Below the pieces are notes generated by a model. That model saw only the letters and a list, made by a program, of their open reading frames with translations. It ran no database searches and was not told the origin of the DNA. The position numbers and the translations under genes were made by a program. A stretch of DNA of 64,000 nucleotides from a virus: IMG/VR virus record IMGVR_UViG_3300048573_000442; one strand, written 5' to 3'. Below, in pieces: positions 40,516 through 55,216 of this stretch; within the stretch, counting starts at the first letter, position 1; each line of letters starts with the position of its first letter.

Positions 40516-40595
40516 AATTAAAACTGTCAGTTGCAACCTCTAAACATGTTCAGCAACTTATTTCATGTGTTCCGAAAGGTCTTGCCAACTTTTAA
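40512..40595 (+). pseudogene. Remnant start of a ninth LRR gene
   Basis: ATGA-coupled ATGAAATTAAAACTGTCAGTTGCAACCTCTAAACA, a deleted version of the paralogue 5/7 start; 27-aa ORF running into the convergent gene. Confidence 0.55.
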
Positions 40596-41406
40596 TTTCG
40601 GGATTAGTTTCTACCAGCTTACGCATTTTGTCCCACACGTTTTGCGGGATAACAATTGCGCCGCCGTCAAACCATACTTCCTGATGTTTCTCTGAATGTC
40701 TAAGAGTTGCTGGAGTACACGCATGCATTTGCAGTTTAGAAGGTGAGTATGCGTCTAAAATTGTTTCTAAAAAATGTTTACGGAAATCGTCGTTCTGCAA
40801 CAGTTCCGAATAATCACTTTGTTGTATTCGTTCGTATGCTTCGCTATCTACATCGCGTATTTGCACATCGAACTGTTCCAGCGATTCAAATGGGTCAGTT
40901 CCTGTGTCCAGTCCTGTATTCAGACCTGTCTCTACAAAGGCAGCCAAATAATCATTCATTTCATTAATTGGTTCCAAATTTCCAAAAAGATCAATAATCT
41001 TTTCCCAGATGTCAAGATCGCCGACTTCTCCGATTTTTGCGTTTTTAACCGGGAGCACAATGTATCTCTCATCGCCAAAACCCTTAGCGTAGGCTAAATT
41101 TGTAGTGCATATCATTGATTGACTTCGCTTAGGAAAATCTTTCATCTCTGGGTGATTATCGAAAATGGTTGTGTACCAATTGGATGTATTTTGGCTTTTG
41201 CGTTTTGTCTTTGTCAAATCAACATAGGAAAAACCTAAACCAGCTCTCATGCCCCGATAGAATGGCTGCTGTTCTTTGAGCATCCAGAATAAATCTGGGC
41301 AATGTTCGTTCAAGTAAAAGGTGATAGGACGAGTAGTAAGCGGTTCAAACACCTGTTTAAGTGAACCTTCTGCTTTTGCTTCTAAGAATGTTTTAAATGT
41401 TTTCAT
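40558..41406 (-). CDS. ADP-ribosyltransferase-like paralogue A
   Basis: MKTFKTFLE; FYRG, SMICTT...AKGFG, QEVWF. Confidence 0.55.
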   Translation of the reverse strand: MKTFKTFLEAKAEGSLKQVFEPLTTRPITFYLNEHCPDLFWMLKEQQPFYRGMRAGLGFSYVDLTKTKRKSQNTSNWYTTIFDNHPEMKDFPKRSQSMICTTNLAYAKGFGDERYIVLPVKNAKIGEVGDLDIWEKIIDLFGNLEPINEMNDYLAAFVETGLNTGLDTGTDPFESLEQFDVQIRDVDSEAYERIQQSDYSELLQNDDFRKHFLETILDAYSPSKLQMHACTPATLRHSEKHQEVWFDGGAIVIPQNVWDKMRKLVETNPEIKSWQDLSEHMK

Positions 41407-42247
41407 TTTTCATAGCTTCCGATAAATCTTGCCAATTTCTAATTCGTTTTTTGCTTGATCTATACATACTTCTCATTTTGTTCCATTCGTCTAATGGAAT
41501 AATAATGGCACCAGTATCAAACCACACCTCATGCCCTATATAAGTCAGTTCTTCGATTTCGCCAAATGCGGACCCATCAATCCGCAGCACTTTCGGCGAA
41601 TACGCCTTCAAAATTGATTCCAAGAACAAATTTGTAAATTCGGTCTTCTCTAATAGGGACGAATATTTGCTGTTTTTAAGTCTTTGAAAAACTTGGCTAT
41701 TTACATCTTTTATTTGGCGGTCAAATTCCTGCAGAAGCCCAAACGAGCATTTTTCTGTTTTTAGTCCACATTGAATGATTCCGGAAAAGAAATCATTCAT
41801 TGTTTTTATTTCTACTTCATCCCCAAAAATTTTAATCCAAAGGTCCCAAATGTCCGACACGTAAATTTCTGCTACTTTAGCATTTTTAACTGGCAGGATA
41901 GCATATACCTGACTTCCAAATCCATGTGCATAATCGAAATCGGTGGTACAAATCATAGACTCGCTTCTTTTCGGGAGATGACTCATTTCAGGATGATTGT
42001 CAAATATTTCCGTGTACCAATTAGAAGAGTTTTGGCTTTTACGTTTTGTCCCTGTCAAATCAACAAATGAAACACTTAGACCTGATCTCATGCCACGGTA
42101 CAGAACTGCTTTCTCCGTCAGCGCCCAGAACGTATCGGGGCAATACTTATTTAGGTAGTAGGCAGCTGGATGTTCCGTAAGGGGCTGATACACTAGCGAA
42201 GCAGAACCTTCTGCTTTTGCTTCTAGGAATGTTTTAAACGTTTTCAT
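41393..42247 (-). CDS. ADP-ribosyltransferase-like paralogue B
   Basis: MKTFKTFLE; LYRG, SMICTT...AHGFG, HEVWF. Confidence 0.55.
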   Translation of the reverse strand: MKTFKTFLEAKAEGSASLVYQPLTEHPAAYYLNKYCPDTFWALTEKAVLYRGMRSGLSVSFVDLTGTKRKSQNSSNWYTEIFDNHPEMSHLPKRSESMICTTDFDYAHGFGSQVYAILPVKNAKVAEIYVSDIWDLWIKIFGDEVEIKTMNDFFSGIIQCGLKTEKCSFGLLQEFDRQIKDVNSQVFQRLKNSKYSSLLEKTEFTNLFLESILKAYSPKVLRIDGSAFGEIEELTYIGHEVWFDTGAIIIPLDEWNKMRSMYRSSKKRIRNWQDLSEAMKNENI

Positions 42248-42825
42248 AGTACGGTTCCTTTAACAATTGAATTAATTGCGTTTATAACAGTTGAATGTTG
42301 AACAACTTCAAAATGGTTTGTCGCTAATAGCAATTCATCCGTTGGCTTTACGCATCTTTGGGATTTTACTGATACAACTCCATCATTAGCATTAGCCATA
42401 AACGGCGATCCTCCGCCAGTAGTTACTACATTTAGCCAACGGCATGGAGGAATTATATTTCTCGAGTATGCAACTGAATTGCTATAAGGTGCTAAATCTT
42501 TCATGACTAGCAATTTTGGAAATGCATAACGTAAAAAGGCAGCAGCGTTATGCCCGCCGAACGGTGTTGATATCGTAATAATTCCGACAACATTTGGGTC
42601 TTCGCAGGCGATACGATGTGCCAAAATTCCACCCAAACTATGTGCAACAATAAAGTATTTTTGGGAAAGTTCTTCATGCTTAATAGCGTTATGCACGCTG
42701 TCGATTGATTGCGTGCTGTCGTATTCAGCAACAATTGGAATATGATCTTGTATCTGGGAAATAATGTGATTAAACACAATTCCAGAGCTATTAAATCCGT
42801 GAATGTAAAGAATTGTGGGTTTCAT
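42244..42825 (-). CDS. Alpha/beta hydrolase (lipase/esterase-like)
   Basis: YIHGFNS, AHSLGG nucleophile elbow, ISTPFGG, NDGVV, NH. Confidence 0.8.
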   Translation of the reverse strand: MKPTILYIHGFNSSGIVFNHIISQIQDHIPIVAEYDSTQSIDSVHNAIKHEELSQKYFIVAHSLGGILAHRIACEDPNVVGIITISTPFGGHNAAAFLRYAFPKLLVMKDLAPYSNSVAYSRNIIPPCRWLNVVTTGGGSPFMANANDGVVSVKSQRCVKPTDELLLATNHFEVVQHSTVINAINSIVKGTVL

Positions 42826-43072
42826 TTAGGATGTTATGTTCGGGTATTGTTAATTTGCCAGCAGAGATTAGATCTCTTCTAATGACTATTAGTCTAGTCA
42901 ATTCTTTAGACAAATGGGATATTTGATCTGAAGTTGATTGGCGATTATATTTTTGAACGTATTTGTTAATCGCATCTTGAGTCATATAGTTAATGACATC
43001 GGAGTAATGATTTATCCGTTCGCTATCAACCACAAAAGCGGTTTTAACTTTTTCAGTAATAATCTTTGACAT
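42791..43072 (-). CDS. Hypothetical protein (93 aa)
   Basis: ORF track, overlaps both neighbours. Confidence 0.4.
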   Translation of the reverse strand: MSKIITEKVKTAFVVDSERINHYSDVINYMTQDAINKYVQKYNRQSTSDQISHLSKELTRLIVIRRDLISAGKLTIPEHNILNETHNSLHSRI

Positions 43073-43835
43073 GTTTCTGTAAATCTTGCCAATCGTCTAT
43101 ATTGATAATGACTGCGCCTTTATCAAACCAAACTTCCCCCTGAATTATTTTCGAGGATTCAAGTGTTGCGGTAGTTTTTGCCAGTAGGCCAGTTTTTCTA
43201 GGAGAATATGCATCAAATAATTCTTTAAGAAAATCGCTTGAAATGACACGTTTATATTTTTCGGCAAAACGCAATCTTTCAATAATTTCACCGTTTTTAT
43301 TTTTTAGGGCTTCATCGAATTTTACCAATGCATTAAAACAGGATTCATCTTCTTCATCATAATCAAGCAGGTTTTTTAAAAAATAATTTGCGTCGATCAG
43401 TGAAAGCGATTTCCCGAATAGGGTTGTCCTAAGATCCCACATGTCCTGTTCGCCAACTAAACCTATTTTTGAACCGTTTACAGGAATCACTGCAAATACT
43501 GATCCAAACGCACTTGCATAACCTTTAGATGTGGAGCAAATTATAGATTTGCTACGTTTGGGAAAGTCCTGCATTTCGGGGTGATTATCAAAAATTTCAG
43601 TATAAAAATTATTGGTGTTTTGGCTTTTCCTGGCCGTCCTTGCCAAATTGACAAAAGCAGGAGGATGATCCCATTGTAGCTTCCCGAATCCCCGATAAAA
43701 TGGTTTATCTTGCTCGATCATCCATAAAGAATCAGAACAATGCCTTTTTAGAAATTCGTGTATGTGATCAATTGGTTCAAATACCTGTTTAGGCGAATCT
43801 TCCGCTTTTGCTTCTAAGAAAGTTTTAAATTTCAT
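43053..43835 (-). CDS. ADP-ribosyltransferase-like paralogue C
   Basis: MKFKTFLE; FYRG, SIICSTSKGYASAFG, GEVWF. Confidence 0.6.
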   Translation of the reverse strand: MKFKTFLEAKAEDSPKQVFEPIDHIHEFLKRHCSDSLWMIEQDKPFYRGFGKLQWDHPPAFVNLARTARKSQNTNNFYTEIFDNHPEMQDFPKRSKSIICSTSKGYASAFGSVFAVIPVNGSKIGLVGEQDMWDLRTTLFGKSLSLIDANYFLKNLLDYDEEDESCFNALVKFDEALKNKNGEIIERLRFAEKYKRVISSDFLKELFDAYSPRKTGLLAKTTATLESSKIIQGEVWFDKGAVIINIDDWQDLQKHVKDYY

Positions 43836-44808
43836 TTTTCAATTTCTCACTGATAAAGTGGGCGACAGATTTAGTCACTAAAATCACAGGACCGCCAATC
43901 CATAATTCTGTCGTACAGTGAAGGTCAAATAAACTAGAGGGCATATTAGCCGTAGTAAAAACTGTATGCTCTGTTGCCTCCGCAGAATATGCTTCCCAAA
44001 TATGATCCAAGAAATGATCCAAGCATTCCGTCGGTGCATTATTAAAAACACTCATGAAAAGCGCAACTGCCGGTTTATTCCTATCCTTCAGTAGTCTGTC
44101 GAATTCTTGAAAACTTTCAAGCGTCTGTTTCAATTTTAAAGCTTCAAACAAATGATTAAAGTGTTCGATATTCCGGTGGGTCCCGAAAAGATTGATTCGG
44201 GTTTGCCACATATCATCATTATTCACTGCACCCATTTTTACTCCATTAAATGGAATAACAACAATATCCTCTCCTTTTGCAGTACTTCCATAACCACTTG
44301 CAATTTTCGGACATGTAGTTGCTATGAAAGAGGCGCTGCGTTTGGGGAAATGGGCCCTTTTTGGATTAGCATCCAAAAGCATATTATAGAAGTTGCCAGC
44401 GCTAATGCTCTTCCTAGAAGTCAACGTCGGATCTGAAACAACTGCACCTGTTGCTAATAGATCGGCCTTCGGGCTTTGGCCGGAAATGCCTCGCCATATA
44501 AACTTTGCGTCCTTTAGAAACGGGACAAAATCTGACGCCTTTTGGCGAATGAGATCTAAGGTTTCATCAAGGGGTTTAGGTTCATAAACAGGCTTTGATT
44601 CCTTTAAGAACTCTGAGAATCTTAAACCTTCTTTTAAGCCCATCATTCGTTTAGTTATTGCCATTCTAAGTGCCCAATGTCTAGGATCATTTTTATCATA
44701 GTCGTATTCAGAACTGATAATTTCTTCAGCTTTATCCCAAAGATGTTCTGCTCTATCAAGAGGTATTTTTGCTTTTTTAGCTAAATGTTTTAGTGCAGTA
44801 AGTGGCAT
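43825..44808 (-). CDS. ADP-ribosyltransferase-like paralogue D with extra N-terminal helical domain
   Basis: IWRG, SFIATT...ASGYG, TELWI; internal LRFSEFLKE tag at about residue 62. Confidence 0.5.
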   Translation of the reverse strand: MPLTALKHLAKKAKIPLDRAEHLWDKAEEIISSEYDYDKNDPRHWALRMAITKRMMGLKEGLRFSEFLKESKPVYEPKPLDETLDLIRQKASDFVPFLKDAKFIWRGISGQSPKADLLATGAVVSDPTLTSRKSISAGNFYNMLLDANPKRAHFPKRSASFIATTCPKIASGYGSTAKGEDIVVIPFNGVKMGAVNNDDMWQTRINLFGTHRNIEHFNHLFEALKLKQTLESFQEFDRLLKDRNKPAVALFMSVFNNAPTECLDHFLDHIWEAYSAEATEHTVFTTANMPSSLFDLHCTTELWIGGPVILVTKSVAHFISEKLKNEI

Positions 44809-44809: not shown

Positions 44810-45466
44810 TTAAAAGTCAGGAAATTGTGGAGGTGGGGCGAAATTTGACGTGTATCTTGCTATTCCACTAGTAAACCTGAAATCGTCAATATATCCAGTA
44901 AAATATTTTGAAACAGATGTATATGCACCAAGTTGGAAATCTCCAGTTGCAAAATCAGTGTTTGCAACTGATGCCACCAAAATGCCATTTTGGTACAATC
45001 GAGTATTTGGGGAATCCAAAACGACCGCAACATGAACCCATTCATTTATTGGCAATGGAGCATTTGCTGTCGCCAAAACGGGAACGACATTTCGTTTGCC
45101 TATAACAAGATTTCCGCTTATTGTTTCCAATGTCAGCCCGCTACCGCTAACAGAAAAAAGAATCCCGACGTCAGAGGCAACGGTTTTATAAAGCCAGAAT
45201 TCAATCGTAAACTTGCTACCAAATAATGACATCGTATTTGACGGTCTAGTCAAATACGATGAGCCGTTTAAATATAGGGACGCTGCGCCAAATTGTTTTT
45301 CTGAGCTACTAATAACTGGGGCCCCAATGCCCGTCCAAACTCCACTTGCCGAATCACCAAAGTTTGAATCAAAGCGTAATAGGCTGATTACGTTAGTCCA
45401 AAATGGATCTGGTGGTTGTGCAGTTGATTGGTAAATTGCGCGGATGAGAACTGAAATGTCTAGCAT
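44810..45466 (-). CDS. LamG / concanavalin-A-like lectin domain protein
   Basis: LLRFD, FGAASLYLNG, FTIEFW, WVHVAVV, GYIDDFRF; start moved to ATG 45466. Confidence 0.8.
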   Translation of the reverse strand: MLDISVLIRAIYQSTAQPPDPFWTNVISLLRFDSNFGDSASGVWTGIGAPVISSSEKQFGAASLYLNGSSYLTRPSNTMSLFGSKFTIEFWLYKTVASDVGILFSVSGSGLTLETISGNLVIGKRNVVPVLATANAPLPINEWVHVAVVLDSPNTRLYQNGILVASVANTDFATGDFQLGAYTSVSKYFTGYIDDFRFTSGIARYTSNFAPPPQFPDF

Positions 45467-45473
45467 AATTAGT

Positions 45474-45956
45474 TTATTCTTTATTAAAGTCGTCCCAAAT
45501 TTCTTTATCTGCTTTTCTAGCAGGCCCGCCAACAATAAACGAATTCACTCGAGCCATCGCCCATTGTGCTTGGGCAACACCCGGTCTATGCCCAGTTCTC
45601 CAAGCTGCAGAACCCTTATTGAACACTCGCCGTAAAATAGATACGGGAATTCCTGTTTTTTCAGACTTATTCTTGAGCGCAACGTCAATATTTGAAGACT
45701 CGCCAAACAGCTCTTCATACTTTTCAGTATGTTCGCTTTTTGGTATAGATTTTCCTGCCGACTTCAACTGTTTCTTATATTTCCTATCAGCGGTCCAGTT
45801 GTCAGGATAAGCTTTTGGATCTTTATGGTCAAGACGTTTAAACTTATCAATTTCTTTTGACATCTCTTTTTTCAGGGGAGGTTTGTTTTTTGCCCCCTTA
45901 AAATCCAAATACTTTGGATTTGTCTCAGAAATGAACTGTTTAAACGTTATCGTCAT
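45474..45956 (-). CDS. Basic protein with conserved viral domain (DUF5824-like)
   Basis: KSEKTGIP..ILRRVFNKG.AAW.TGHRPG..Q.QWA.ARVNSF; FKQFISE tag. Confidence 0.55.
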   Translation of the reverse strand: MTITFKQFISETNPKYLDFKGAKNKPPLKKEMSKEIDKFKRLDHKDPKAYPDNWTADRKYKKQLKSAGKSIPKSEHTEKYEELFGESSNIDVALKNKSEKTGIPVSILRRVFNKGSAAWRTGHRPGVAQAQWAMARVNSFIVGGPARKADKEIWDDFNKE

Positions 45957-45958
45957 GA

Positions 45959-46213
45959 TTATTTTGCTGGCTTAACAACGTCTTTAAACACTACGCCTTC
46001 AGAACCATCCCATTCGCCGACGCCGATAGTCTCCTTGCGCTTATACGGCTTAGTTCCAATGAAAGCATTGCAGATGTCCTGGTCTCCATCAAACCAAGCA
46101 CCTGGCTGATATTTGCGAACGGCAGTTTTCCATGAACTATAAGTCGTGTAAACAGTTTCCCCCATATGGTTCTTTGCTTCTTTAAGATTTACTAGTTGTT
46201 TTAGTAATTGCAT
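45959..46213 (-). CDS. Hypothetical protein (84 aa)
   Basis: AGAGG RBS; LKQLVNLKEA N-terminus. Confidence 0.5.
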   Translation of the reverse strand: MQLLKQLVNLKEAKNHMGETVYTTYSSWKTAVRKYQPGAWFDGDQDICNAFIGTKPYKRKETIGVGEWDGSEGVVFKDVVKPAK

Positions 46214-46242
46214 TTTTGTGCCTCTATTGGTTAAATGTATAT

Positions 46243-46539
46243 TTATCTCTTGTCGTAATTAACGTGTATTACTTTTGCTTTAATTACGCCAAGGCCCTGA
46301 AGTATATGTTTTTTCAACCGCAATGTCAACTTTTCAGACAGGTCTTTTTGAAAGCCTAGATCCCTAGGTCTGTCTGCACAATCCGTCCTGAACTCTATAA
46401 CAGTTTGTGGCCCCTCATCTAATAAATGGATGCTAAAGATCTTACAAGCAATGAGTTCTTCTTCAGCAATGTGGTGCAGCATGTTTTCCCATTTTTTAAG
46501 GTGTTCTTCACGCTTAAGGAATTCTTTAAATGTCTTCAT
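46243..46539 (-). CDS. Hypothetical protein (98 aa), internal-protein-like tag
   Basis: MKTFKEFLKRE; ATGA coupling. Confidence 0.55.
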   Translation of the reverse strand: MKTFKEFLKREEHLKKWENMLHHIAEEELIACKIFSIHLLDEGPQTVIEFRTDCADRPRDLGFQKDLSEKLTLRLKKHILQGLGVIKAKVIHVNYDKR

Positions 46540-47186
46540 AAAATTTCTGCCAATCTTGGTTTAATGACATCATAAAATAGATTGCTTAAAGTATCTATTT
46601 TGTAATACTGCTTGCATTTCAAATGAATTTCATTGCCGTTATCGATGCATTCTTCAAGCTCTTCATTTACATTCCATCTAGCGTGTGAAAATTTTTTAAC
46701 TAGCATGTCTGCTGCCATAGTCTGACGCTGATCATAGTTGTATTGGTTTTCTTTATCAGCTGCGAATATTTTGCCAGATAAATAGGCTGAAGAGCCGTAT
46801 GCGTCTTTAAATGCGTCCTTGCCCGTATCAGCATTACAAACCCATTGAAATTCCCCAATTGGGAAAATAGCAAATACCTTTCCGTATTGTCTAGCATCGT
46901 TTTGTTGACCAGTAACAAACATCCAATTTCGAATAGGCTCGCCGACTAAATCAACAAAAAAATCATTCATTTTATCATGCAAGTACGTGCTTGAATCCCT
47001 AGGCCCGCCACGTAGCCTAAAATCCCTGATCTCCCAATCGGCAGACCCTCCAGATTCAGAGCCGCGATACATCAATTTGTTTCCGCCGGTTCCTTTTAGT
47101 TGCTTAAATAAAAATGAGCAGTCTTCTTCAAATCGTTTAAGATCAAAAGATTTTTGTTCGTTTAGGAAAGTTTTAAATGTTTTCAT
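46536..47186 (-). CDS. ADP-ribosyltransferase-like paralogue F (diverged)
   Basis: Start moved to MKTFKTFLNE at 47186; MYRG, RDSS, MFVTG...ARQYG..FAIFP, NEIHL. Confidence 0.45.
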   Translation of the reverse strand: MKTFKTFLNEQKSFDLKRFEEDCSFLFKQLKGTGGNKLMYRGSESGGSADWEIRDFRLRGGPRDSSTYLHDKMNDFFVDLVGEPIRNWMFVTGQQNDARQYGKVFAIFPIGEFQWVCNADTGKDAFKDAYGSSAYLSGKIFAADKENQYNYDQRQTMAADMLVKKFSHARWNVNEELEECIDNGNEIHLKCKQYYKIDTLSNLFYDVIKPRLAEIL

Positions 47187-47880
47187 ATTTAACCCATGGG
47201 TCGTTGATGACAATAGTTCCGTCTTCAGCAATCATAAAATTGCTGCTGTGTAAATCGTTTTGGAACCCGTTCTTGCGCCCAATTTGGACGACATCGAATA
47301 TAGTAGAGGCCAATTTAACTAATTGCTGTTGGCCCATATGGAGTATGAGGTACTCCAAACCTGATGAAATCTCTAGTGCTGTTCTCGTAAAAAACATTTT
47401 GCCTTTTCTTGCAAACAGCGACTGATTATCAATTTCTAAGGCAGCTGGATGTTCTATATAGGTCGTAACAGCTTTAAGATATTCGATCTTTTTGTTGTTA
47501 AATGCGTCTACCTCTGTTGATAAGAACCCAAGTGCGATGCCAGTGTGTTCTGATATAGAACCCATCTCAAAAAGGCGTTCAGATTTTGCTATTAGCACCT
47601 TGGTGCCAGTCTCTGAGTTAACAATTGTTTCCGGGGCGCCAATATCAGGGATAAATTGGTTATTTTTATTTGCCAAACAGTATTTTAGCCACTTGACAAA
47701 TACGCTTGACCTCGAATCGTTTAGTGGACCGATCGCCAACAACACTTCATGTTTTTCATTCATCCAGACCGTCTTATCATATCCACTAGCTTCCATGAAA
47801 TAGCCGCGATCCCTCATTAGATGAAACAACCAAGAACTATCATCAGGTGAAAAATCAGATTCAAATAGGCGATGTTTCAT
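47173..47880 (-). CDS. Atypical protein kinase paralogue 1 (T7 gp0.7-like)
   Basis: DLHSSNFMIAEDGTIVINDPW; start at ATGA-coupled MKHRLFES. Confidence 0.7.
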   Translation of the reverse strand: MKHRLFESDFSPDDSSWLFHLMRDRGYFMEASGYDKTVWMNEKHEVLLAIGPLNDSRSSVFVKWLKYCLANKNNQFIPDIGAPETIVNSETGTKVLIAKSERLFEMGSISEHTGIALGFLSTEVDAFNNKKIEYLKAVTTYIEHPAALEIDNQSLFARKGKMFFTRTALEISSGLEYLILHMGQQQLVKLASTIFDVVQIGRKNGFQNDLHSSNFMIAEDGTIVINDPWVKYENI

Positions 47881-48605
47881 TTGTACCATCCATCGGCTTT
47901 CTTTACAAGTACCTCTAATGGGATGATATTTGGCGACAAATATTTCTCAGCCTCTTCTCGCATCTGTTTTAAATATCTTTTCCCTACAGGATTTTTCAAA
48001 GGCTCACTAAAAAACCCCTGAACAGATTTAAAAATTTTCAAGATGGCTTTGTCGTCAAGGGCGCCATCATTTTCAACCTGCTTAAAAAAATCAACTTTCG
48101 CCTGTAGAAACTTTGCGTTTTCCAAATTGACTTCACTGACTTTGCGAATAAATTCTGCGTCAACTTTTCGTCCAGAAATATCAGTTCGAGATTTTGCCCT
48201 TTTAAGAGATGTTTCCAAGCTTGCGTGAACAAACACTACTCCTACATCATATCCTATAGATTCAAGAATGCCTATGCGATGCAATATTTGGGAAACATTA
48301 TTCGAAGTGCTATCAACAAACAGTGGCAGCATCGAATTCATATAGCCTGTTAAAGATTTTTTTGTGATTTTAATCGATGAATCTCTTAATTCGGGCCACG
48401 TTTCAGAGGATACTTCCTTATCAAGTTTAAAGGCCATGAATTCGGTTGCAATGTCAGTATTGACTACTTTTGGGGAAATTTGCCCCCTTAGGTTCCTGAC
48501 TGTGTAACTCTTGCCGGCACCTGGCAAGCCAATCACGAAAACAGCTTTAAGAATGCCAGCATCATTAATGCCTTCTGTTATGTAGGTTTTGAAATTTGTT
48601 GTCAT
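47877..48605 (-). CDS. Zeta-toxin-like P-loop kinase
   Basis: GLPGAGKS, VNTD, FVDST, VFV...ETSLKR...R. Confidence 0.65.
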   Translation of the reverse strand: MTTNFKTYITEGINDAGILKAVFVIGLPGAGKSYTVRNLRGQISPKVVNTDIATEFMAFKLDKEVSSETWPELRDSSIKITKKSLTGYMNSMLPLFVDSTSNNVSQILHRIGILESIGYDVGVVFVHASLETSLKRAKSRTDISGRKVDAEFIRKVSEVNLENAKFLQAKVDFFKQVENDGALDDKAILKIFKSVQGFFSEPLKNPVGKRYLKQMREEAEKYLSPNIIPLEVLVKKADGWYK

Positions 48606-48609
48606 AATT

Positions 48610-49299
48610 TTAAAAGGATGCCCATGGATCGGTGATAACTAAAGTGCCGTCTGAAGCAATCATAAAGTTACCGGAATGTAAATCTAGAAAGCCGCTGCTA
48701 GGAGTTGCATTAATAATATCTATTAAAGTTCCTAGCAAAAAGTCAAAATCCTCGACGCTTAACACCAATAGCGCCATGCTTTCGGTAATATCCCCACTTG
48801 CTTCTAATCTAGCTTTTGCGTCCGCAATGACTTTTGATTTTAGGTCTTTTTGTAAAATGCTAGTAGAGCCAATAGCACTAGTGCAAGCTTTCACAAGTTC
48901 ATGAATTGCTTCTCGTATCTGGCTGAGTTCGGAAGAGACTTCAAACAAGCGTTCGATGTTGGCGACGATAAACTTCTCACCGCTTATAGTAAGTGGTTTT
49001 GAAAAACTAATATTTGGTAAATGGGGATTGGATGAATGTTGAAAACAAAAACTTACCCACTTTTTGAAATTGGCTGTTTCCCTATAGCTTTCGTCATGTT
49101 GGATTATTTTGACGTTATGTGTTTTTGGATTAACAAATGCTGCTTTAAAAGCGCCAGCTCTCAAAAATTTGTAACCTAAGCCTTTCATATGTTCTAAAAG
49201 AATGCTGCTTCTTCTAGATTCATCATTAAAATCCTGTTCTTCTGTGCTGATGGACTCGACCAAATATTTTTTGAAATTGCGCGCCATCATTATGCCCAT
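48610..49299 (-). CDS. Atypical protein kinase paralogue 2 (T7 gp0.7-like)
   Basis: FLRAGAFKAAF, VKI, NPHLPNI, DLHSGNFM, ITDPW. Confidence 0.75.
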   Translation of the reverse strand: MGIMMARNFKKYLVESISTEEQDFNDESRRSSILLEHMKGLGYKFLRAGAFKAAFVNPKTHNVKIIQHDESYRETANFKKWVSFCFQHSSNPHLPNISFSKPLTISGEKFIVANIERLFEVSSELSQIREAIHELVKACTSAIGSTSILQKDLKSKVIADAKARLEASGDITESMALLVLSVEDFDFLLGTLIDIINATPSSGFLDLHSGNFMIASDGTLVITDPWASF

Positions 49300-49985
49300 G
49301 GGTCAGTTATGACTATTGTTCCGTCTTCGCCAAGCATGAAATTTCCTGGATGCAAATCGAGAATTGAGTTACTAGGTGAAAAATCAATAATGTCTATTAT
49401 GGTCCCTATCAAAGAATCGATATCTTCAACACTTAATAGCAGTAATGAATGAGCATCATTTTCAAATTCGTCATTGGAGCCAAAATTTTCAAGAGAGCTT
49501 TTTATTTCAGCTATTAATTCGTCTCGGGGTTTATTTTTGCCGCCGCTCGAAGCTCTTGATGTTTCGCATAAATCCGCAATTTCAGTCAACGCGAAACCGA
49601 TAGAAACAATACTAGAACTGTCTATCGAAAATAGTCTTTCAATGGTGGCAATCTGAAACACATGCTTCGTGCCATCTTCACCTCCTATTTTTAACGGGCG
49701 ATCAAGTTTTATAATCGGGAGATGCGGGTTGTTCTTATGTTGTTTGCAAAAATCTATCCAGCGAGTAAAAGTACTAAATGAAGCTGGATTATTCTTGTAC
49801 AAAATTATTTTTGTCGAGCTAGAATCCATATACGCAGCTTTTTCAACCCCACTGCCGAGAAATTTGAACCCGTTTAGAACCATATATTTGTGCAAAGCAA
49901 AAGCACGTTCGCGATCAGCGAAACTCCCCGATCTCAAATACTTGGGGGCTTCATGGCTTTCGGCTAGAAAATGTTTAAAGTTCAT
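49290..49985 (-). CDS. Atypical protein kinase paralogue 3 (T7 gp0.7-like)
   Basis: LGSGVEKAAY, TKI, NPHLPII, DLHPGNFM, ITDPW; start moved to MNFKHFLAE. Confidence 0.75.
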   Translation of the reverse strand: MNFKHFLAESHEAPKYLRSGSFADRERAFALHKYMVLNGFKFLGSGVEKAAYMDSSSTKIILYKNNPASFSTFTRWIDFCKQHKNNPHLPIIKLDRPLKIGGEDGTKHVFQIATIERLFSIDSSSIVSIGFALTEIADLCETSRASSGGKNKPRDELIAEIKSSLENFGSNDEFENDAHSLLLLSVEDIDSLIGTIIDIIDFSPSNSILDLHPGNFMLGEDGTIVITDPWA

Positions 49986-50028
49986 TTTAATGGGAATGTA
50001 ACATTCAGTTAAGTTTGCGCTATCCACT

Positions 50029-50928
50029 TTATTCCTCACGCGATTTGATTTCAATGACAACAGCTTTAAACAATTCTATCGGTACAAGGAAAGCCTTCCC
50101 AGAAAACCAGCACTCCCTACTCTCCGGCAGCTTATCCCCATAATTCGCAACTGACAGATTGAGCGAATCAGGCGTGAATACTGCATCAGCTATCGCCTGA
50201 GTTAGGTTGCTGTGATTCTGTGTGATAAACTCACGAATGTACGTAACGCTTACATTCGGGAAAGTGCGGACAAACGCATCTATTACATCGTCAATAGGGG
50301 CTTTAGCAATAGTCTCTTGAAATTGATGCAAACTGACAACGCTTTCGTATCTATTGGCCAAAGGCAAAGTATGTGTTCCTACTCTATTCACAAACACAAA
50401 AAGTTTGTCACTAAGGTAATCTAACGGCACTTCGCGGCCGAAGAAGTTAACATCGCAATTTAGGAAATCGCGCTTATCACAAAATGTAATTAACGAACTT
50501 GAATTTTTCCCAACCGGGACCACCACTGAAACCGCTCCGTACGAACTAGCAGATGATAGAGAAGTAGAGCAGATGAGAGATTTTGAACGATCTGGAATTC
50601 CTGCCTGATTTAACGGCCCTGAAATTGCCATCATCAATTGATACACGTTGTCAGTATCTTTCGACGTTCTTATGCCAGTAGATGAATCAATATACGATAG
50701 TTTCGGCGCTCTTGGGCTGCTGAGGTCCCTTGAGCTTTTTGAACTCCCTCGATATAAAATGCCGCCATTTTTTAATGCTGATAAGAATCCTGGGCAATGC
50801 TTAAGCAAAGCGTCAGTTGCACTCACGATATCCTTTTCATTGAAGTGTTCAGACTTATTCAATAAGGTCCTTTTTCTCCATGCCTTCACTACGGCTTCAT
50901 TCAGTGCAAGTATTTCTGCCAATTTCAT
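50029..50928 (-). CDS. ADP-ribosyltransferase-like paralogue E
   Basis: LYRG, RTSKD, SLICSTSLSSASSYG, RECWF. Confidence 0.6.
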   Translation of the reverse strand: MKLAEILALNEAVVKAWRKRTLLNKSEHFNEKDIVSATDALLKHCPGFLSALKNGGILYRGSSKSSRDLSSPRAPKLSYIDSSTGIRTSKDTDNVYQLMMAISGPLNQAGIPDRSKSLICSTSLSSASSYGAVSVVVPVGKNSSSLITFCDKRDFLNCDVNFFGREVPLDYLSDKLFVFVNRVGTHTLPLANRYESVVSLHQFQETIAKAPIDDVIDAFVRTFPNVSVTYIREFITQNHSNLTQAIADAVFTPDSLNLSVANYGDKLPESRECWFSGKAFLVPIELFKAVVIEIKSREE

Positions 50929-50931: not shown

Positions 50932-51378
50932 TCAATCCAGCTGTTTAATGTTGCCGTCTACTGTTATCATGCGTAATATTTCTTCACGGTTTGCAACGAG
51001 AATATTGTTAGTAGTTTTCCCGCCATTGGCATATGGAACAAAACTTTGATTTGCACGCTTTCTATCAGTCTTTGCTTTTGATCTGCTATTTACAGCGCTG
51101 AGTGCAATGTTGAGATAATTTGCAGCTACCTCGGCATTTCGAGCAGCATATCTTGGCTCAATGACTTCTAAATAATCCTGCTGGGTTTTAAATGCATCTA
51201 GCGCCGCAGTATAAATTTCATCAATTCTTTGCTCTATAAGAACATCATCGGCATCTTTGTGATCCACTGGCGGCTCTGTTGCAGAAAGTTCCTGCTTGGG
51301 CTGTTCAACCATGCCATATTCTTCTTCAATGTCAAACTCTTCACTCATGTTAAATGCTTGTTCCAATGGATTTCTCAT
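50932..51378 (-). CDS. Probable terminase small subunit (T4 gp16-like)
   Basis: Helical PR...EVAANYL segment and C-terminal TTNNILVANREEIL resemble gp16-family NN..VGST.EL. Confidence 0.55.
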   Translation of the reverse strand: MRNPLEQAFNMSEEFDIEEEYGMVEQPKQELSATEPPVDHKDADDVLIEQRIDEIYTAALDAFKTQQDYLEVIEPRYAARNAEVAANYLNIALSAVNSRSKAKTDRKRANQSFVPYANGGKTTNNILVANREEILRMITVDGNIKQLD

Positions 51379-51857
51379 TTTCGTGTTCCTTTAGTTCCTC
51401 TAGACTTAATAGCACCTTTAGTTTGTCTCGTAGACGGCCGTTTTTGTGCTTGTGCAAACAATTCGCGTTCAGTGACCAGCCTAAATCGAGCGCCAATGGC
51501 TTTTGCAAGATTTTCTGCAGCTTGCCACTTCGCAGCGTTTCTGATGAGCATAAGCTTATCGTAATTTGATTTAGCTTCTGACATCATTGCTTCTTTTAAT
51601 GGCTTAATCTCAACAATTTCTAAAGTGTTGTTAGTATACTGGACTAAAAAGTCTGGCCAATAATGTTTGACTTGCTTAGTAATTGGGTCCAAATATGTTA
51701 TATTTAGATTTTTCGGTTCACTGAACCATTTAGACACATGAATAGAATTATCTAGTGCCCGCATATAAGCTATTTCCCAACTAGAGCGGGCAACAATTCG
51801 CCTTGCATCCCCTGCATATTTCTTTGGGTTAGTTGGAACAAAAACGAGATTTGCCAT
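51375..51857 (-). CDS. Head completion nuclease (T4 gp4-like), copy 1
   Basis: FVPTNPKKY.G...I.ARSSWE...M, SE, YWPDF, VEIKP, KW.AA. Confidence 0.8.
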   Translation of the reverse strand: MANLVFVPTNPKKYAGDARRIVARSSWEIAYMRALDNSIHVSKWFSEPKNLNITYLDPITKQVKHYWPDFLVQYTNNTLEIVEIKPLKEAMMSEAKSNYDKLMLIRNAAKWQAAENLAKAIGARFRLVTERELFAQAQKRPSTRQTKGAIKSRGTKGTRK

Positions 51858-51859
51858 AA

Positions 51860-52300
51860 TTATTTCTTAGCCTTTTTAACGCCTTGGTGGAAAATGCTTT
51901 TTTCGGTAAGCACGCGAAATTTCATTCCTCGCTCTTGGCAATAAATTGCTGCGCTCTTCCATTTAGCTTCATTGACAACCAATGCATCCTTTGATCTCTG
52001 GCTTTTAGCAAATTGTTTGTCAGATTCATGAAGTGGTTTAACTTCTACCAATTCTTTAATTAGATTTCCGTCTTTGTCCATGTATTCGACAAAGAAATCC
52101 GGAAAATAGCGGTGCACTTTACTATCGAGTGGACTCAAATAAGGGATAACTATTTCTTCTGAACCCCATTTTAAGACATCTGGGCGACTGTCAAAATACT
52201 TCATGCATGCAACTTCCCAAGAAGAACGGGCAAAAATAGCATTTGGATCCCCAACGTATTTGGTGGGGTTTTTAGGTATGAAACGAGCGTTAAGCGCCAT
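51860..52300 (-). CDS. Head completion nuclease (T4 gp4-like), copy 2
   Basis: FIPKNPTKY.GD...ARSSWE, WGSEE..IPY.SP.D..VHRYFPDF, VEVKP. Confidence 0.85.
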   Translation of the reverse strand: MALNARFIPKNPTKYVGDPNAIFARSSWEVACMKYFDSRPDVLKWGSEEIVIPYLSPLDSKVHRYFPDFFVEYMDKDGNLIKELVEVKPLHESDKQFAKSQRSKDALVVNEAKWKSAAIYCQERGMKFRVLTEKSIFHQGVKKAKK

Positions 52301-53582
52301 TGTCGTACGGCACTGAAAGGTCTGTTACTGGGGCAGCATTGTCAGTAATAGCGGGTTTAGTAGGAAGCGCAAAACCCTGTACTACGCCAGTACCAATAGA
52401 ATTAATCGTCCTATTTGCTGCAGCGCCTAATGAACCCGAAACCGAACCTATTGCCCCATTTAAAGCGCGACCGACTGCATTATTCCCGACTACCTTTCGT
52501 AATGCTCCACTAATAGCGCTCTGAACTGCTCGTTCGCCTTGGCGTGCAAGAATGTCAACAAATGGGTTGCGCTCATTTCCTGGAGAAGTTTTTGCGCCCC
52601 TAACAATATACGCTGAACCTTCGTTATATCCGGACAATATGTCTATGATCATTGGCGCTGAAGGGGATCTATGTTGTCTTGCAGTGCTAGAATCCTTAGC
52701 AGCAGAAAGGCCTGTTTCTATATAAAGCGTATCGAAATCAAAGGTCCCAGTAATCAAATTGAAATTGGTGTCCTCATGATCATGATCGCCAAGTGATAAT
52801 TTGGAAATCCGCGGATTCGTAAAAACAAAGTCGTTTACTTTTACTGGGTCATGTGAACCCATCTCCATGTAATATTGATGGATTATGATTTTTGCAAGAA
52901 CGTTATTGTTCCCGCCATACAGCGCGCCTCTGTTTGATGAGTCGAGTTCATTAGGGGAATTACTAAATGAAAAACCATAGTCTCCTAAATTTGTTGAAGC
53001 CTCATGTTCCCTTCTAGATATTGGCACATGCAGCATGCGATAAAGATTTGCAAAATCCAGCGATTTGTTAGAAACGTCATCATAGAAAGTAAATGAAATT
53101 TCATCATGTGTTATGCTTTTTAGAACCTTAGTTCTAAAATTATACATATTAACCATTTCATAATCAAACGATACCGACGGAAGATCTATCTGCTTAACAG
53201 AATAATCTAACCCGCGCATTAACTCATCAACAGTTTTGCCACCAAGCGTCGATGCATATTCGGCAATGCCCGAATTGAAAATAAATGAAACTTTAAAAAG
53301 GAACTTTGTTCTTGGAATATTTGATGCAGTTGAATTCCTGCCAGTCGAGACATTTTGGGCTGCGTATCTAGTAGAATCCCAAACAAGGGGGGTTATTTGG
53401 GCAATTGCGTCAGCAGCTGAAACTGCATCGCTATCGCCTGTTAATTCGGTTGCGCCAGTAGATTTAAAAATCCCAGAAAGCGCGCGATCGGCAACACCTT
53501 GGACTGCAGCTCCAAACTGTTTAAAGGCTTCTGCTTCTAAAGCAACACCCGTAGATTTGATAATGTTTTTCACATCGCGCAT
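52290..53582 (-). CDS. Baseplate/tail-tube initiator-like protein (gp54/gp19 fold)
   Basis: KFLFKVSF...VKQIDLPSVSF...ISFTFYDD tube-fold pattern. Confidence 0.6.
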   Translation of the reverse strand: MRDVKNIIKSTGVALEAEAFKQFGAAVQGVADRALSGIFKSTGATELTGDSDAVSAADAIAQITPLVWDSTRYAAQNVSTGRNSTASNIPRTKFLFKVSFIFNSGIAEYASTLGGKTVDELMRGLDYSVKQIDLPSVSFDYEMVNMYNFRTKVLKSITHDEISFTFYDDVSNKSLDFANLYRMLHVPISRREHEASTNLGDYGFSFSNSPNELDSSNRGALYGGNNNVLAKIIIHQYYMEMGSHDPVKVNDFVFTNPRISKLSLGDHDHEDTNFNLITGTFDFDTLYIETGLSAAKDSSTARQHRSPSAPMIIDILSGYNEGSAYIVRGAKTSPGNERNPFVDILARQGERAVQSAISGALRKVVGNNAVGRALNGAIGSVSGSLGAAANRTINSIGTGVVQGFALPTKPAITDNAAPVTDLSVPYDNGA

Positions 53583-53607
53583 AATAATTCCTAAGACTAA
53601 TAAGAAG

Positions 53608-53615
53608 TATTTATG
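53608..53615 (-). promoter_or_regulatory. Late promoter-like CATAAATA
   Basis: 26 nt upstream of 53582. Confidence 0.5.
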
Positions 53616-53719
53616 GCAGACGTAACAATTTGGGCATCCTAACCGGAAATGAATAAAGGCTACTTTAAAAGTAGCCTTTATCTTTAACTGATAACGAGTT
53701 GAACCCGTTATCTTACAGC

Positions 53720-54310
53720 TTAAAGATTACCGCCCAATGCAGTACCATAGCCAGCACCAAGCAGTTCTTGACGTGCATGGTCATAACGAAGTTGCAAACT
53801 AATTGTTGCAGCAGTTGAATCAGAGTAATCCATATCGCCATAATCAACCGATGCGATAAAGCAGCCTTCAAGTTTCCAACGCTCAACTACGCCTTCGCCA
53901 CCGTCTAGGGCCTCAAGGATAGTTCCGAATTTGTAATCAGAACCCGTAGCAGCTTGAGCTAGCCACTCGCCAGGAAGATCTCCGCCGATCAAACGCTGTT
54001 GAGTTTCCAGCTGACCCTGAATGGCACCTGAAGCCAAACCGGTAATATCGTCTTCAACCGTTAATGAAATCGGTTCGAAAGTGTGCTTTCCAGCAACATA
54101 GGCAGTGGAGTTATAGCGGTGCATCGTCACTTGTTCAAATGACAGGTTCGGACGCTGAACGTTAGTTGCCTGACGAGTAAGTTCGCGTGAAGATGCGCCG
54201 GGTACCAAACGCGCTAAGCCCACAAAGGTTACTTGCCAGCGGTGCTTTAGCTTAGGGTGAAGTATGCCGGAACCAGCGGCAGGAATACCAATTTGTGATA
54301 ATGTCGACAT
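53720..54310 (-). CDS. Tail tube protein (T4 gp19-like)
   Basis: PKLKHRWQVTF, RPNLSF, YVAGK.TFEPISLTVEDD, WKLEGCF, L.YD.A. Confidence 0.85.
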   Translation of the reverse strand: MSTLSQIGIPAAGSGILHPKLKHRWQVTFVGLARLVPGASSRELTRQATNVQRPNLSFEQVTMHRYNSTAYVAGKHTFEPISLTVEDDITGLASGAIQGQLETQQRLIGGDLPGEWLAQAATGSDYKFGTILEALDGGEGVVERWKLEGCFIASVDYGDMDYSDSTAATISLQLRYDHARQELLGAGYGTALGGNL

Positions 54311-54368
54311 TTTTTCTCCTTGAATAAGTAATGCAATCGCCCGAGTGGCAAATGTTTAAATCATTGCC

Positions 54369-54376
54369 TATTTATG
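54369..54376 (-). promoter_or_regulatory. Late promoter-like CATAAATA for the tube gene
   Basis: 59 nt upstream of 54310. Confidence 0.5.
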
Positions 54377-54403
54377 GGAACAATCAAAAAACACACAAAC
54401 CTC

Positions 54404-55216
54404 TTAATTTAGGCTATCTAAGAATGAACTATACGCTGTTGTAACAGGAACTCCTGACTTTGCAATCAAGTGAAACGGGACTAAAATATATCCATCAGAA
54501 TCATAGAAGAATATTTCGTTGCGCGACGTAATTGCTTCGGCAAAGCTTTCGTTGTTCTTATAATAATCTAGAGCAAACAGCTTTATCGCCTTAATAAGAT
54601 CAGCGTGCTTTAGCTTTAAAATATTTCTATCTGAGCATTTACGAGCAGCTGCTTCTGTATGTTGTTCGGCATTTCCGTCGAGATTGTGAACCCAAACAGC
54701 TGATGAAACACTTCCTATAATCGTGAAAAGATTTTCAAAGAACTCGATTAGTTCAAAAGCCGTAATAGGGAATTTACTACGCGGCAACAAATCCCTAATA
54801 CTTTCGGCAAAAAACTCAAGGCCTCCGTCTTCGCCAACATAAGAATCTTGTAGTTTTTTAGACCATGCCCACTGAAAATTTCCACATGGGAAGCAAAATG
54901 CTAAATGTTTTGCGTACTTAGAGGCCTCTGTCAAGGAACCGACTGCAAAAAAGGATCGTTGGCGAATATCAGGTATGCCATATGCAGCGTCAATTGCGGC
55001 GTTGAATGCGAAACTGAATTCTTGGCTTGAATCTCTTGGCGGACGGTATTTGGGATGCGGAATTATTAAAGCTTTTTCAACAGGCCTACTTACAGATCTG
55101 AACAATGCTTTGCCATCAGACAGCGCTAAAAATGGTTGACAGTGTTGCTTAATCAGCTCTGAGGCGTTTTTAAGTAGGTCGTCCTGCTCTGTCAAAAATT
55201 GCCTAAACTGGGTCAT
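54404..55216 (-). CDS. ADP-ribosyltransferase-like paralogue G (diverged), between sheath and tube
   Basis: FRQFLTE tag; LFRS, RDSS, SFFAVGS...ASKY...FCFP, NEIFF. Confidence 0.4.
   Translation of the reverse strand: MTQFRQFLTEQDDLLKNASELIKQHCQPFLALSDGKALFRSVSRPVEKALIIPHPKYRPPRDSSQEFSFAFNAAIDAAYGIPDIRQRSFFAVGSLTEASKYAKHLAFCFPCGNFQWAWSKKLQDSYVGEDGGLEFFAESIRDLLPRSKFPITAFELIEFFENLFTIIGSVSSAVWVHNLDGNAEQHTEAAARKCSDRNILKLKHADLIKAIKLFALDYYKNNESFAEAITSRNEIFFYDSDGYILVPFHLIAKSGVPVTTAYSSFLDSLN

Follow-up and report, generated by a model that had tools for sequence, protein, structure and literature searches.

Seven paralogous genes on the minus strand of the window, the 64,000-nt stretch of DNA analyzed here, encode proteins that share a pattern of conserved residues and, in most copies, a T4-type N-terminal leader. 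We see about an even chance that they are late-made, head-packaged and injected NAD+-using effectors with a divergent ADP-ribosyltransferase (ART)-type core, which would be analogous to T4 Alt and form a separate family.

Gene map of the array

The seven paralogues comprised five core members (A, B, C, D and F) and two divergent members (E and G). The array carrier was a giant (jumbo) T4-related phage. Copy A (40558..41406, 282 aa, family profile E 1e-93) carries the leader MKTFKTFLEAKAE and the motifs FYRG, RKS, SMICTT and EVWF. Copy B (41393..42247, 284 aa, family profile E 5e-79) overlaps the start of copy A by 14 nt, has the same leader (MKTFKTFLEAKAE) and shares 53% identity with A. It is followed by copy C (43053..43835, 260 aa, family profile E 1e-89) with the leader MKFKTFLEAKAE, and copy D (43825..44808, 327 aa, family profile E 1e-105), where a leader-like stretch, GLRFSEFLKE, is preceded by a 60-aa N-terminal module. 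This architecture was observed in about 20 of the 183 family representatives. Copy F (50029..50928, 299 aa, family profile E 7e-43) displayed the leader variant MKLAEILALNE together with LYRG, RTS, SLICSTS and ECWF.

Among the divergent members, copy E (46536..47186, phrog_11975) has 216 aa when counted from the ATG at 47186, which is most likely its start rather than an upstream TTG; it contains the leader MKTFKTFLNE and the motifs MYRG, PRDS, IRNWMFVTG and NEIHL. Copy G (54404..55216, 270 aa) contains MTQFRQFLTE, LFRS, PRDS, RQRSFFAVGS and NEIFF, and is flanked by a tail sheath gene and a tail tube gene. When the ORFs of the window were searched, the core-family profile matched A, B, C, D and F at E 1e-43 to 1e-106, and the profile built from the relatives of E matched G (7e-20), A (2e-5) and B (2.5e-5). 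Neither profile detected further members among the other ORFs of the window. The core family aligned with the G family in hhalign (probability 95%, E 2.7e-8), and PHROG 11975 connected A, B, C, E, F and G. These tests of homology confirmed the seven paralogues proposed in the first-pass annotation, and its motif order was found in all seven copies.

Several neighbouring minus-strand genes carry the same type of leader. A Zeta-toxin/AAA_33-type P-loop kinase (47877..48605; leader MTTNFKTYITE; Pfam Zeta_toxin 3.8e-10, AAA_33 2.5e-10) matched positions 258-465 of phrog_12810, and positions 33-256 of the same phrog matched A-D and F; in other phages, the Zeta-type kinase and the ART-like domain occur as a fusion. 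It is interleaved with three kinase-fold paralogues (47173-47889, 48610-49287 and 49290-49985, together spanning 47173..50060), two of which start with MARNFKKYLVE and MNFKHFLAE in the leader scan. The ORF at 48610-49299 matched phrog_15752, a T7-type protein kinase, and a faint match to Phage_T7_kinase was seen in this group. Leader-tagged small proteins are encoded within 45474..46539, namely a DUF5824 protein (45474-45956, MTITFKQFISE) and a 98-aa ORF (46243-46539, MKTFKEFLKRE).

Residue conservation and predicted fold

The proteins belong to a large, uncatalogued jumbo-phage family, which comprised 3,692 metagenome clusters at 50% identity, had no Pfam match in a scan of 139 members and is listed as unknown in PHROGs. 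Conservation was analyzed in 183 representatives sharing <50% identity. Position 51 was Arg in 176 sequences and Lys in seven; Arg69, Ser71 and Arg94 were invariant, and Ser97 was kept in 182. Residue 101 was Ser or Thr in 172 representatives, Thr102 was present in 140, and Glu243 and Trp245 did not vary wherever the residue was present. A total of eleven polar residues were invariant or nearly so, which at this level of divergence points to a catalytic or ligand-binding site. Arg69, Ser71, Asn76, Tyr78, Arg94, Ser97 and Asp132 are extra invariant residues outside the classical ART signature. The ExE or QxE motif was absent from the family, the residue two before Glu243 being variable. Among relatives of copy E, the β1 position alternated between R and H, the two residues used there by ART clades (PMC7955679). 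The loss of S-T-S reported by the first-pass annotation for F and G held for G (AVGS) but not for F, which keeps CSTS; the other copy without it is E (VTG). The helical insert, predicted to sit between β4 and β5, varied more than any other part of the protein, in line with the variable insert of the first-pass annotation, but it measured 45-114 residues (median 73) instead of 100-130.

AlphaFold (AF2) models of copy A (pLDDT 91.6) and copy E (pLDDT 90.2) had the same two top whole-domain matches, BC2332 from Bacillus cereus (PDB 2aua) and the rifampin ADP-ribosyltransferase Arr (PDB 9iaf, 9iba). Model A reached Z>=5 with only three of 48,161 chains, including BC2332 (Z 6.0, 124 residues aligned) and Arr (Z 5.9). 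ART-fold proteins made up 26 of its best 50 matches (among them cholix toxin, PARPs, tankyrases, diphtheria toxin, scabin, pertussis toxin, AcrIF11, TreX, Tpt1 and AvrPphF), and cyclic-nucleotide-binding β-barrels made up 20, at Z 3.7 or less. For model E, the sole whole-domain matches were BC2332 (Z 6.1 over 128 of 199 residues, exceeding the next row by 1.5 Z) and Arr/Arr-2 (Arr-2 Z 4.5). Taking both models together, BC2332 aligned at Z 5.7-6.1 over 124-129 residues and Arr at Z 4.5-5.9 over 86-92 residues; a Z of about 6 is modest, under the level where matches of this aligner stand alone. Both proteins have the compact ART core predicted for the family, and the active site of BC2332 is diphtheria-toxin-like (PMC3024214); their sequence identity to the family was just 6-14%, and the family carries residues of the R-[ST]-E type. 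In the models, strands 49-53, 98-101 and 243-246 (β1, β2 and β5) carry Arg51, [ST]101-Thr102 and Glu243, so that the predicted layout has Arg on β1, [ST]-Thr ending β2 and Glu opening β5. This supports the placement of R, S/T and E on the strands of the ART triad (R-S-E). By structure, ART-PolyVal was the named ESM Atlas cluster closest to the family.

The ART-like reading proposed in the first-pass annotation was upheld in part, by two independent, confident models with their best matches, the strand placement and the variable insert. The sequence searches gave no link to any ART, including the cholera-toxin-like and Alt/Mod ARTs named there (Pfam scan of 139 members, PDB profile searches, hhalign against T4 Alt with a probability of 0.2%). 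Structural alignment placed BC2332 and Arr first; Foldseek against the PDB found no significant match.

It is possible, but unlikely, that the packaged enzymes perform other chemistry. The invariant pocket (Arg69, Ser71, Asn76, Tyr78, Arg94, Ser97, Asp132 and Glu243) would then be a binding site for a different phosphorylated ligand, for a nucleotide or for a nucleic-acid end. The substrates would be RNA, DNA or nucleotide signals, the Zeta/PNK-like kinase possibly taking part, and the likeness to ARTs would amount to a shared β-sandwich arrangement only. Three (nearly) invariant arginines and two serines suit phosphate binding, a Zeta_toxin/AAA_33 kinase is fused or adjacent to the domain, Agrobacterium phage Atu_ph07 has a weak RNA-ligase-like neighbour, and the modest Z-scores come without a sequence link to ARTs. 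However, the top whole-domain matches of both models were ART-fold proteins and not kinases, nucleases or ligases, and R or H, S/T and E fall exactly on β1, β2 and β5. The invariance of Glu243 also differs from the RNA-repair ARTs of the Tpt1 type, which have no β5 Glu.

Slightly less probable are head-packaged hydrolases of NAD+ or ADP-ribose, or signal-degrading enzymes, which would destroy NAD+ or NAD+-derived defence signals on entry instead of acting as transferases. Such a function would agree with a single Glu in an ART-type core that lacks the ExE/QxE typical of protein-modifying ARTs, and enzymes of the NAD+-ADPr network are often carried in phage heads (PMC9503650). The variable insert and the 3 to 12 family-profile matches that each of five related records carries are better suited to many macromolecular targets than to a single small molecule.

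Leader peptides and virion homologues

Five of the seven copies carried MKTFKxFLxE-type N-terminal peptides, as did five neighbouring ORFs. The pattern M..F[KR]x[FY][LI]..E stands at the start of ten ORFs in the 41-55 kb interval, and elsewhere, across all six frames, it had one chance match. The leader closely resembles the T4 capsid targeting sequence MKTYQEFIAE, the N-terminus of IPII and IPIII, and agrees with it at positions 4, 7, 8 and 10, whose functions have been mapped. In T4, residues 4 and 7 serve targeting and residues 8 and 10 serve processing, with gp21 cleaving behind L/I-x-E (PMC9026906). Leader and catalytic core were conserved alike (1.93 vs 1.98 bits of entropy). In copies A-C, the leader has the sequence FLEAKAE, which misses L-x-E by one residue. 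The window contained no head protease gene, and a gp21-type protease (PF03420) was present in four of five related records, including all three complete ones. The first-pass annotation had passed over both this leader and the published Atu_ph07 virion data.

The products of gp53-gp62 of Atu_ph07 are family members (E 5e-40 to 1e-5, identity 23-30%), and mass spectrometry of purified virions detected all ten, with 3-31 unique peptides each (PMC6102473, Table S5); the gene-to-protein mapping was verified via molecular weight, and these virion data come from distant homologues only. They are true homologues arranged in an array, with their own shared leader, MRWEQLTE, ending in L-x-E. The leader sequence itself differs from that of the window, and some members are tandem-domain or kinase-fused, such as gp53 (ART-like domain plus Zeta kinase).

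T4 IPI-III share the decapeptide pattern M-K-T-[FY]-x-x-F-[LI]-x-E on unrelated proteins, ending in the gp21 motif L/I-x-E (PMC9026906), but they are small basic inhibitor proteins, whereas the cargo of the array would be enzyme-like domains. The phage of the window does not belong to the T-even phages and is related to them only distantly, as a jumbo phage. The array leader is nearer to that of IPII/IPIII than to the short propeptide of Alt, to which the array proteins may be likened in other respects: Alt is late-made, carried in the capsid, cut after Glu by gp21 and injected with the DNA, and has an ART-type core with Arg on β1, S/T on β2 and Glu on β5. In contrast to Alt (~680 aa, ExE), the array proteins have 216-327 aa, a single Glu, a helical insert and additional invariant residues (Arg, Ser, Asn, Tyr and Asp), and they occur in multiple copies. 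The ART-PolyVal (PF18760) and MuF-fused head-packaged ARTs are also co-delivered with DNA and frequently occur as fusions with other effector domains (PMC9503650), and the gp53 fusion follows the same logic. The family matched these ARTs weakly by structure and had no Pfam match to PF18760; its proposed delivery uses a short cleavable leader instead of MuF, portal or giant-polyprotein fusion.

The virion data would also fit non-catalytic internal head proteins (scaffold, inner-body or DNA-associated cargo) on a degenerate ART fold, comparable to the processed paralogous head proteins of phiKZ-like phages. Many processed head proteins of giant phages have no assigned function (PMC9026906), and S-T-S is lost in E and G. 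We consider this improbable, since the (near-)invariant polar residues are retained at <50% identity and the proteins have a pI of 5.1-8.2, mostly acidic to neutral, unlike the basic DNA-bound T4 IPs. Least probable are unpackaged late cytoplasmic enzymes with an N-terminus spread by duplication as a translation-initiation or folding feature, which would fit the protease-free window and virion data taken from another phage, but not a leader that unrelated folds (ART-like, kinase-fold, P-loop kinase and DUF5824) have in common, its agreement with the T4 sequence at the mapped positions or the homologues in Atu_ph07 virions.

Late-promoter motifs and proposed mode of action

ATAAATA, the T4 late-promoter core, was located on the minus strand at 55591..55597, 25 nt upstream of the DUF5856-G operon; at 53608..53614, 26 nt upstream of an operon running from a tube-like gene through gp4-like genes, F and the kinases to E; and at 46240..46246, 27 nt upstream of an operon running from 45959-46213 to D, C, B and A. 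Ten of its 16 copies fell within the intergenic 4.4% of the window, on the correct strand and 25-59 nt upstream of gene starts.

In the proposed head-packaged effector mechanism, ATAAATA-type promoters would drive late synthesis and the leader would direct loading into the prohead core, where a gp21-type head protease probably trims it after L-x-E. The proteins would be ejected into the host together with the DNA and may use NAD+ for modifying host targets or defence components. The presence of multiple copies and the helical insert would provide different specificities. The T4-type leader on most copies suggests that the array proteins are probably head-packed enzymes injected with the DNA. 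Together with the Atu_ph07 virion data, it would change their description from toxins or effectors to capsid-delivered effectors.

Paralogy and residue conservation of the seven genes

The seven ADP-ribosyltransferase (ART)-like genes, lettered A to G by coordinate, are encoded on the minus strand at 40558-55216. The motifs that the first-pass annotation had listed for them, from an aromatic-Arg segment to a Glu-hydrophobic strand, were found in all seven and in the order proposed. The region is a dense block of phage late genes, mostly on the minus strand. It includes genes for the tail sheath (55648-57486), the tail tube (53720-54310, 196 aa, adjoined by a tail-tube-like paralogue of 430 aa), the large terminase (32589-34580) and two tandem gp4-type head-completion proteins with a Tn7_TnsA-like_N fold (51375-52300, minus strand). 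Structural genes were duplicated in two places on the minus strand, the gp4-type pair at 51375-52300 and the tube pair at 52290-54310. Genes for a ribonucleotide reductase, a UvsX-like recombinase and a helicase were likewise present, and a 147-kb metagenome contig with the same genes gave Pfam matches to T4 gp13 and gp15. No nucleotide match to the 14.7-kb region was detected by megablast among 50,697 deposited phage records. The relatives at the protein level were jumbo phages, namely Agrobacterium phage Atu_ph07 (490 kb), Salicola phage SCTP-2, Ralstonia phage RsoM2USA and uncultured phages of 484 and 642 kb.

A profile of 183 family sequences matched copies A, B, C, D and F with E-values from 1e-43 to 1e-106, while a profile of the relatives of copy E recovered G (7e-20), A (2e-5) and B (2.5e-5). 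In a profile-profile comparison, the core family aligned with the relatives of G over the N-terminal 110 columns (probability 95%, E 2.7e-8). On the strength of these matches, the seven copies are assigned as real paralogues in two subfamilies, a core one (A-D and F) and a divergent one (E and G), matching PHROGs 12810 and 11975, neither of which has an annotated function. The core-family and E-relative profiles detected no eighth member among the ORFs of the window. The family comprised at least 3,692 cluster representatives, counted at 50% identity, at E <= 0.001 among 1.84 billion searched, and 1,061 of the same representatives matched at E <= 1e-30. None of the 43 matches of the first homologue search had a Pfam domain or an informative name, and the ESM Atlas clusters of the family were 96-100% viral.

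Ten residues, numbered as on copy A, were invariant in the 183 representatives: Arg69, Ser71, Asn76, Tyr78, Pro92, Arg94, Pro119, Asp132, Glu243 (181/181) and Trp245. Ser97 was kept in 182 of the 183. Position 51 was Arg in 176/183 and Lys in 7/183, position 101 was Ser or Thr in 172/183, and position 102 was Thr in 140/183, with a consensus of PKRSxSFICSTS around the second strand (beta2). The loss of the S-T-S motif, which had been attributed to F and G, applied to G and not to F; the copies found without it were E and G, and both retained the Arg on beta1, the Glu, and residues equivalent to Arg69 and Arg94. An ExE or QxE motif was absent, as the residue two before Glu243 varied (H, G, Q, T, S and R in the seven copies; D, N, S and E among the representatives). 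The variable helical insert noticed earlier was confirmed as the most variable part of the protein (length 45-114), with 2.93 bits against 1.98 bits for the catalytic core.

Predicted fold and relation to ADP-ribosyltransferases

Copy A was modelled by AlphaFold2 with a mean pLDDT of 91.6 from a 46-sequence alignment. The model contained strands at 49-53 (bearing Arg51), 98-101 (closing with the S/T-T pair and followed by a helix), 113-119 and 125-127, then a hairpin, helices across 147-225, and strands at 243-246, with Glu243 as the first residue, and 249-254. Copy E, modelled from its own alignment of 14 sequences, reached a pLDDT of 90.2. The split beta-sheet core of ARTs (strands 4-5-2 and 1-3-6) is the probable fold of both models, on structural matches with modest Z scores.

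Structure prediction followed by Foldseek had been proposed as a check, and its outcome was divided: Foldseek gave no match in the PDB at E <= 0.001 for either model, but an exhaustive structural comparison placed ART folds first among the whole-domain matches. Of 48,161 representative chains, three aligned with model A at Z >= 5, among them BC2332 (Z 6.0, rmsd 3.3, 124 residues aligned) and Arr (Z 5.9, 86 residues); these values of about 6 are modest, and the aligner cautions that Z below 8 may reflect a common arrangement. ART-superfamily proteins accounted for 26 of the top 50 rows for model A, including cholix, diphtheria, pertussis and CARDS toxins, PARPs, tankyrases, scabin, AcrIF11, TreX, Tpt1, AvrPphF and Tse2. 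Another 20 of the 50 were cyclic-nucleotide-binding barrels, every one at Z <= 3.7. Model E had many matches to its helical hairpin, and its whole-domain matches were only BC2332 (Z 5.7 to 6.1, 128/199 residues aligned, 1.5 Z over the next row) and Arr or Arr-2 (Z 5.7 and 4.5). The ART triad, which lines the NAD+ cleft, consists of Arg or His on beta1, Ser/Thr or Tyr on beta2, and Glu, Asp or Gln on beta5. Arg51, Ser/Thr101, Thr102 and Glu243 are residues of the right kinds on the right predicted strands. Among the relatives of E, the beta1 position holds either Arg or His, and these are the two beta1 residues used, in the R-S-E and H-Y-E clades respectively, which further supports an ART fold. 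The active-site constellation of BC2332 is diphtheria-toxin-like (PMC3024214). The nearest named ESM Atlas clusters, both weak matches, were ART-PolyVal by structure and DUF2441 by sequence features, which belong to the Pfam ART clan (PMC7955679). DUF2441 (PF10386) itself was not found in five related phage records. Since two separate models share the top ART proteins, the hit list is strongly enriched in ART folds, and beta1, beta2 and beta5 each bear one of the three most ART-like residues, the copies probably have an ART fold, as judged from the models.

Sequence methods did not recover this relationship. No ART-clan Pfam match was obtained for any of 139 family members even at E 10, where only scattered chance matches appeared, and Pfam scans of the seven copies likewise gave chance matches and no ART family. 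Searches of PDB sequences by phmmer and hmmsearch with copy A and family queries returned no ART and nothing relevant. T4 Alt was aligned by hhalign with a probability of 0.2%, through the YRG segment alone. The tentative fold call of the first-pass annotation was thus partly supported, with BC2332 and Arr as the top two whole-domain matches for both models, but not by sequence comparison. The R-S-E clade of protein-modifying ARTs (cholera toxin, VIP2/C3, T4 Alt/Mod), some of which that annotation had cited for comparison, has an ExE or QxE motif at the ARTT loop and beta5; the copies lack this motif, and the alignment to Alt gave no homology. The additional invariant residues of the family also fall outside the ART signature.

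A Tpt1/KptA-type RNA 2'-phosphotransferase was considered because a kinase adjoins the copies, and was set aside as the principal interpretation, since the beta5 Glu is missing from that clade but Glu243 is invariant here.

Because the sequence tests fail and the ExE of the Alt/VIP2 group is absent, the family is placed, by sequence criteria, outside every curated ART family and filed as a distinct, probably leader-delivered ART-like family.

Putative head-loading leaders, late-promoter motifs and probable packaging

The leader M-(K/T)-T-F-K-x-F-L-x-E or a close variant, a feature absent from the first-pass annotation, opened five of the seven copies (MKTFKTFLEA in A and B, MKTFKTFLNE in E, MTQFRQFLTE in G, and C). 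The same leader was present on five neighbours, namely a Zeta-toxin/AAA_33 kinase, two kinase-fold proteins, a DUF5824 protein and a 98-aa ORF. Over all six frames of the window, the pattern was found in these ten ORFs and in one chance match elsewhere. Copy F starts with the variant MKLAEILALNE. In copy D (43825-44808, minus strand) the motif comes after a 60-residue N-terminal module, MPxTALKHLAKKAK...YWAL..GI.KKM.GL, which was also seen in about 20 of the 183 representatives. Pfam gave no match for this module, which might serve as a long propeptide or be a small cargo of its own. Two proteins inside the array, one alpha/beta-hydrolase-like (42244-42825, minus strand) and one with a Laminin_G_3 (ConA-like) domain (44810-45535, minus strand), had no recognisable leader.

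T4 internal proteins IPII and IPIII start with MKTYQEFIAE (NC_000866). This is the T4 capsid targeting sequence, in which targeting depends on residues 4 and 7 and processing on residues 8 and 10, with cleavage by gp21 after L/I-x-E (PMC9026906, PMC3012670). The leader-bearing copies have an N-terminus of this T4 type, aromatic at positions 4 and 7, and that of E agrees with the T4 sequence at all four mapped positions. The leader ended in L-N-E in E and F and in L-T-E in G, and the family consensus was FKxFLxE, with the final Glu in 166/183. Copies A-C deviate at this end (FLEAKAE), where close homologues read FLQEAKAE. Across the family the leader was as conserved as the catalytic core (1.93 vs 1.98 bits). 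Eight tandem LRR-like paralogues at 34724-40515 (plus strand) have MKLKQLFE-type N-termini, which resemble the MKLxELFE leader variant of many family members.

The full T4 late promoter TATAAATA was not enriched in the window (4 found, 3.2 expected), and among the late-promoter motifs only the position of the shorter ATAAATA was informative. Intergenic sequence makes up 4.4% of the window and contained 10 of the 16 copies of ATAAATA, the T4 late-promoter core. Each of the ten was on the correct strand, with a gene starting 25-59 nt downstream; the genes behind them include those for sheath, tube and terminase and the operons containing G and F-E. An eleventh copy lies 27 nt upstream of the operon ending with D, C, B and A. 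The sites, all 25-59 nt upstream of gene starts, are at 3449, 18942, 34609, 34675 (plus strand), 46240, 53608, 54369, 55591, 57541, 57625 (plus strand) and 63848. They appear to mark late operons of the phage, and from their positions the seven ART-like genes are most likely expressed late, which is when head cargo would be made.

Three kinase-fold paralogues and a Zeta_toxin/AAA_33 P-loop kinase were encoded between E and F (47173-50060, minus strand). The paralogues belong to phrog_15752, of the T7 gp0.7 kinase type, and have the common motif HxGNFM...DPW. Because most of these kinases bear the same head-loading leader, the interval seems to encode a varied group of enzymes destined for injection.

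The family profile also picked out gp53 to gp62 of Atu_ph07 (L001), all ten with MRWEQLTE-like leaders closing in L-x-E. The GenBank CDSs were tied to the published gp numbers by exact molecular weight, and all ten proteins had been seen in purified virions by ESI-MS/MS with 3-31 unique peptides each (PMC6102473, Table S5). Among them, gp53 (L001 14957-17293) combines an ART-like domain, a Zeta_toxin kinase domain and about 300 further residues, and gp54 (L001 13461-14933) contains two ART-like domains in tandem. The same phage encodes a T4 gp21 homologue, gp204 (PMC6102473). A gp21-type Peptidase_S77 (PF03420) was present in four of five large family-bearing IMG/VR records, including all three complete ones, and these five records had 3 to 12 family-profile matches each. 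No protease was detected among the window ORFs scanned, which were part of its ORFs. The virion data for RsoM2USA consist of ten gel bands only and have no bearing on the family. The copies are very probably packaged in the phage head.

Proposed role and significance

In the proposed mechanism, copies A-G would be made late in infection and directed by the leader into the prohead core, where the head protease would strip the leader. The proteins would then stay with the DNA and be ejected into the cell, where the ART-type core would modify or otherwise act on host targets with NAD+ as substrate, and the variable helical insert would determine which targets are chosen. Beyond the observed paralogy, conservation, leaders and promoter positions, we infer the catalysis, the leader cleavage, the injection and the targets, and we give the whole chain, from late synthesis to NAD+ use, about an even chance.

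A broader proposal is more tentative and, taken jointly, rather doubtful. The family might represent a very large, unrecognised clade of the ART superfamily, arrayed in jumbo phages and capsid-delivered by a T4-type leader. Its enlarged invariant set (three Arg, two Ser, Asn, Tyr, Asp and Glu) and the recurrent Zeta-type kinase fusion might then reflect chemistry or targets not like those of Alt, and the helical insert of each paralogue might address a different host or defence target. If true, nucleic acids or defence proteins, for example, would be ADP-ribosylated in a reaction coupled to phosphorylation.

The functionally closest known case is T4 Alt, while BC2332 and Arr are structurally closest and the leader is closest to the targeting sequence of the T4 internal proteins. 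To our knowledge, Alt has for many years stood alone in textbooks as an enzyme that a phage packs into its head and injects to reprogramme the host. The present family, with at least 3,692 clusters, appears to repeat this role in jumbo phages on a far larger scale. Head-packaged phage ARTs have been described as a wider pattern (PMC9503650). The family is absent from Pfam and unknown in PHROGs. The assignment would name thousands of hypothetical proteins. The head-loading tag has already been mapped experimentally in T4, and virion proteomics of homologues exists for the cultivable Atu_ph07. The reach of the T4 targeting code across phage diversity and the first-injected proteins of giant phages are thus directly testable, and so is the possibility that variable effector arrays explain host range or defence evasion.
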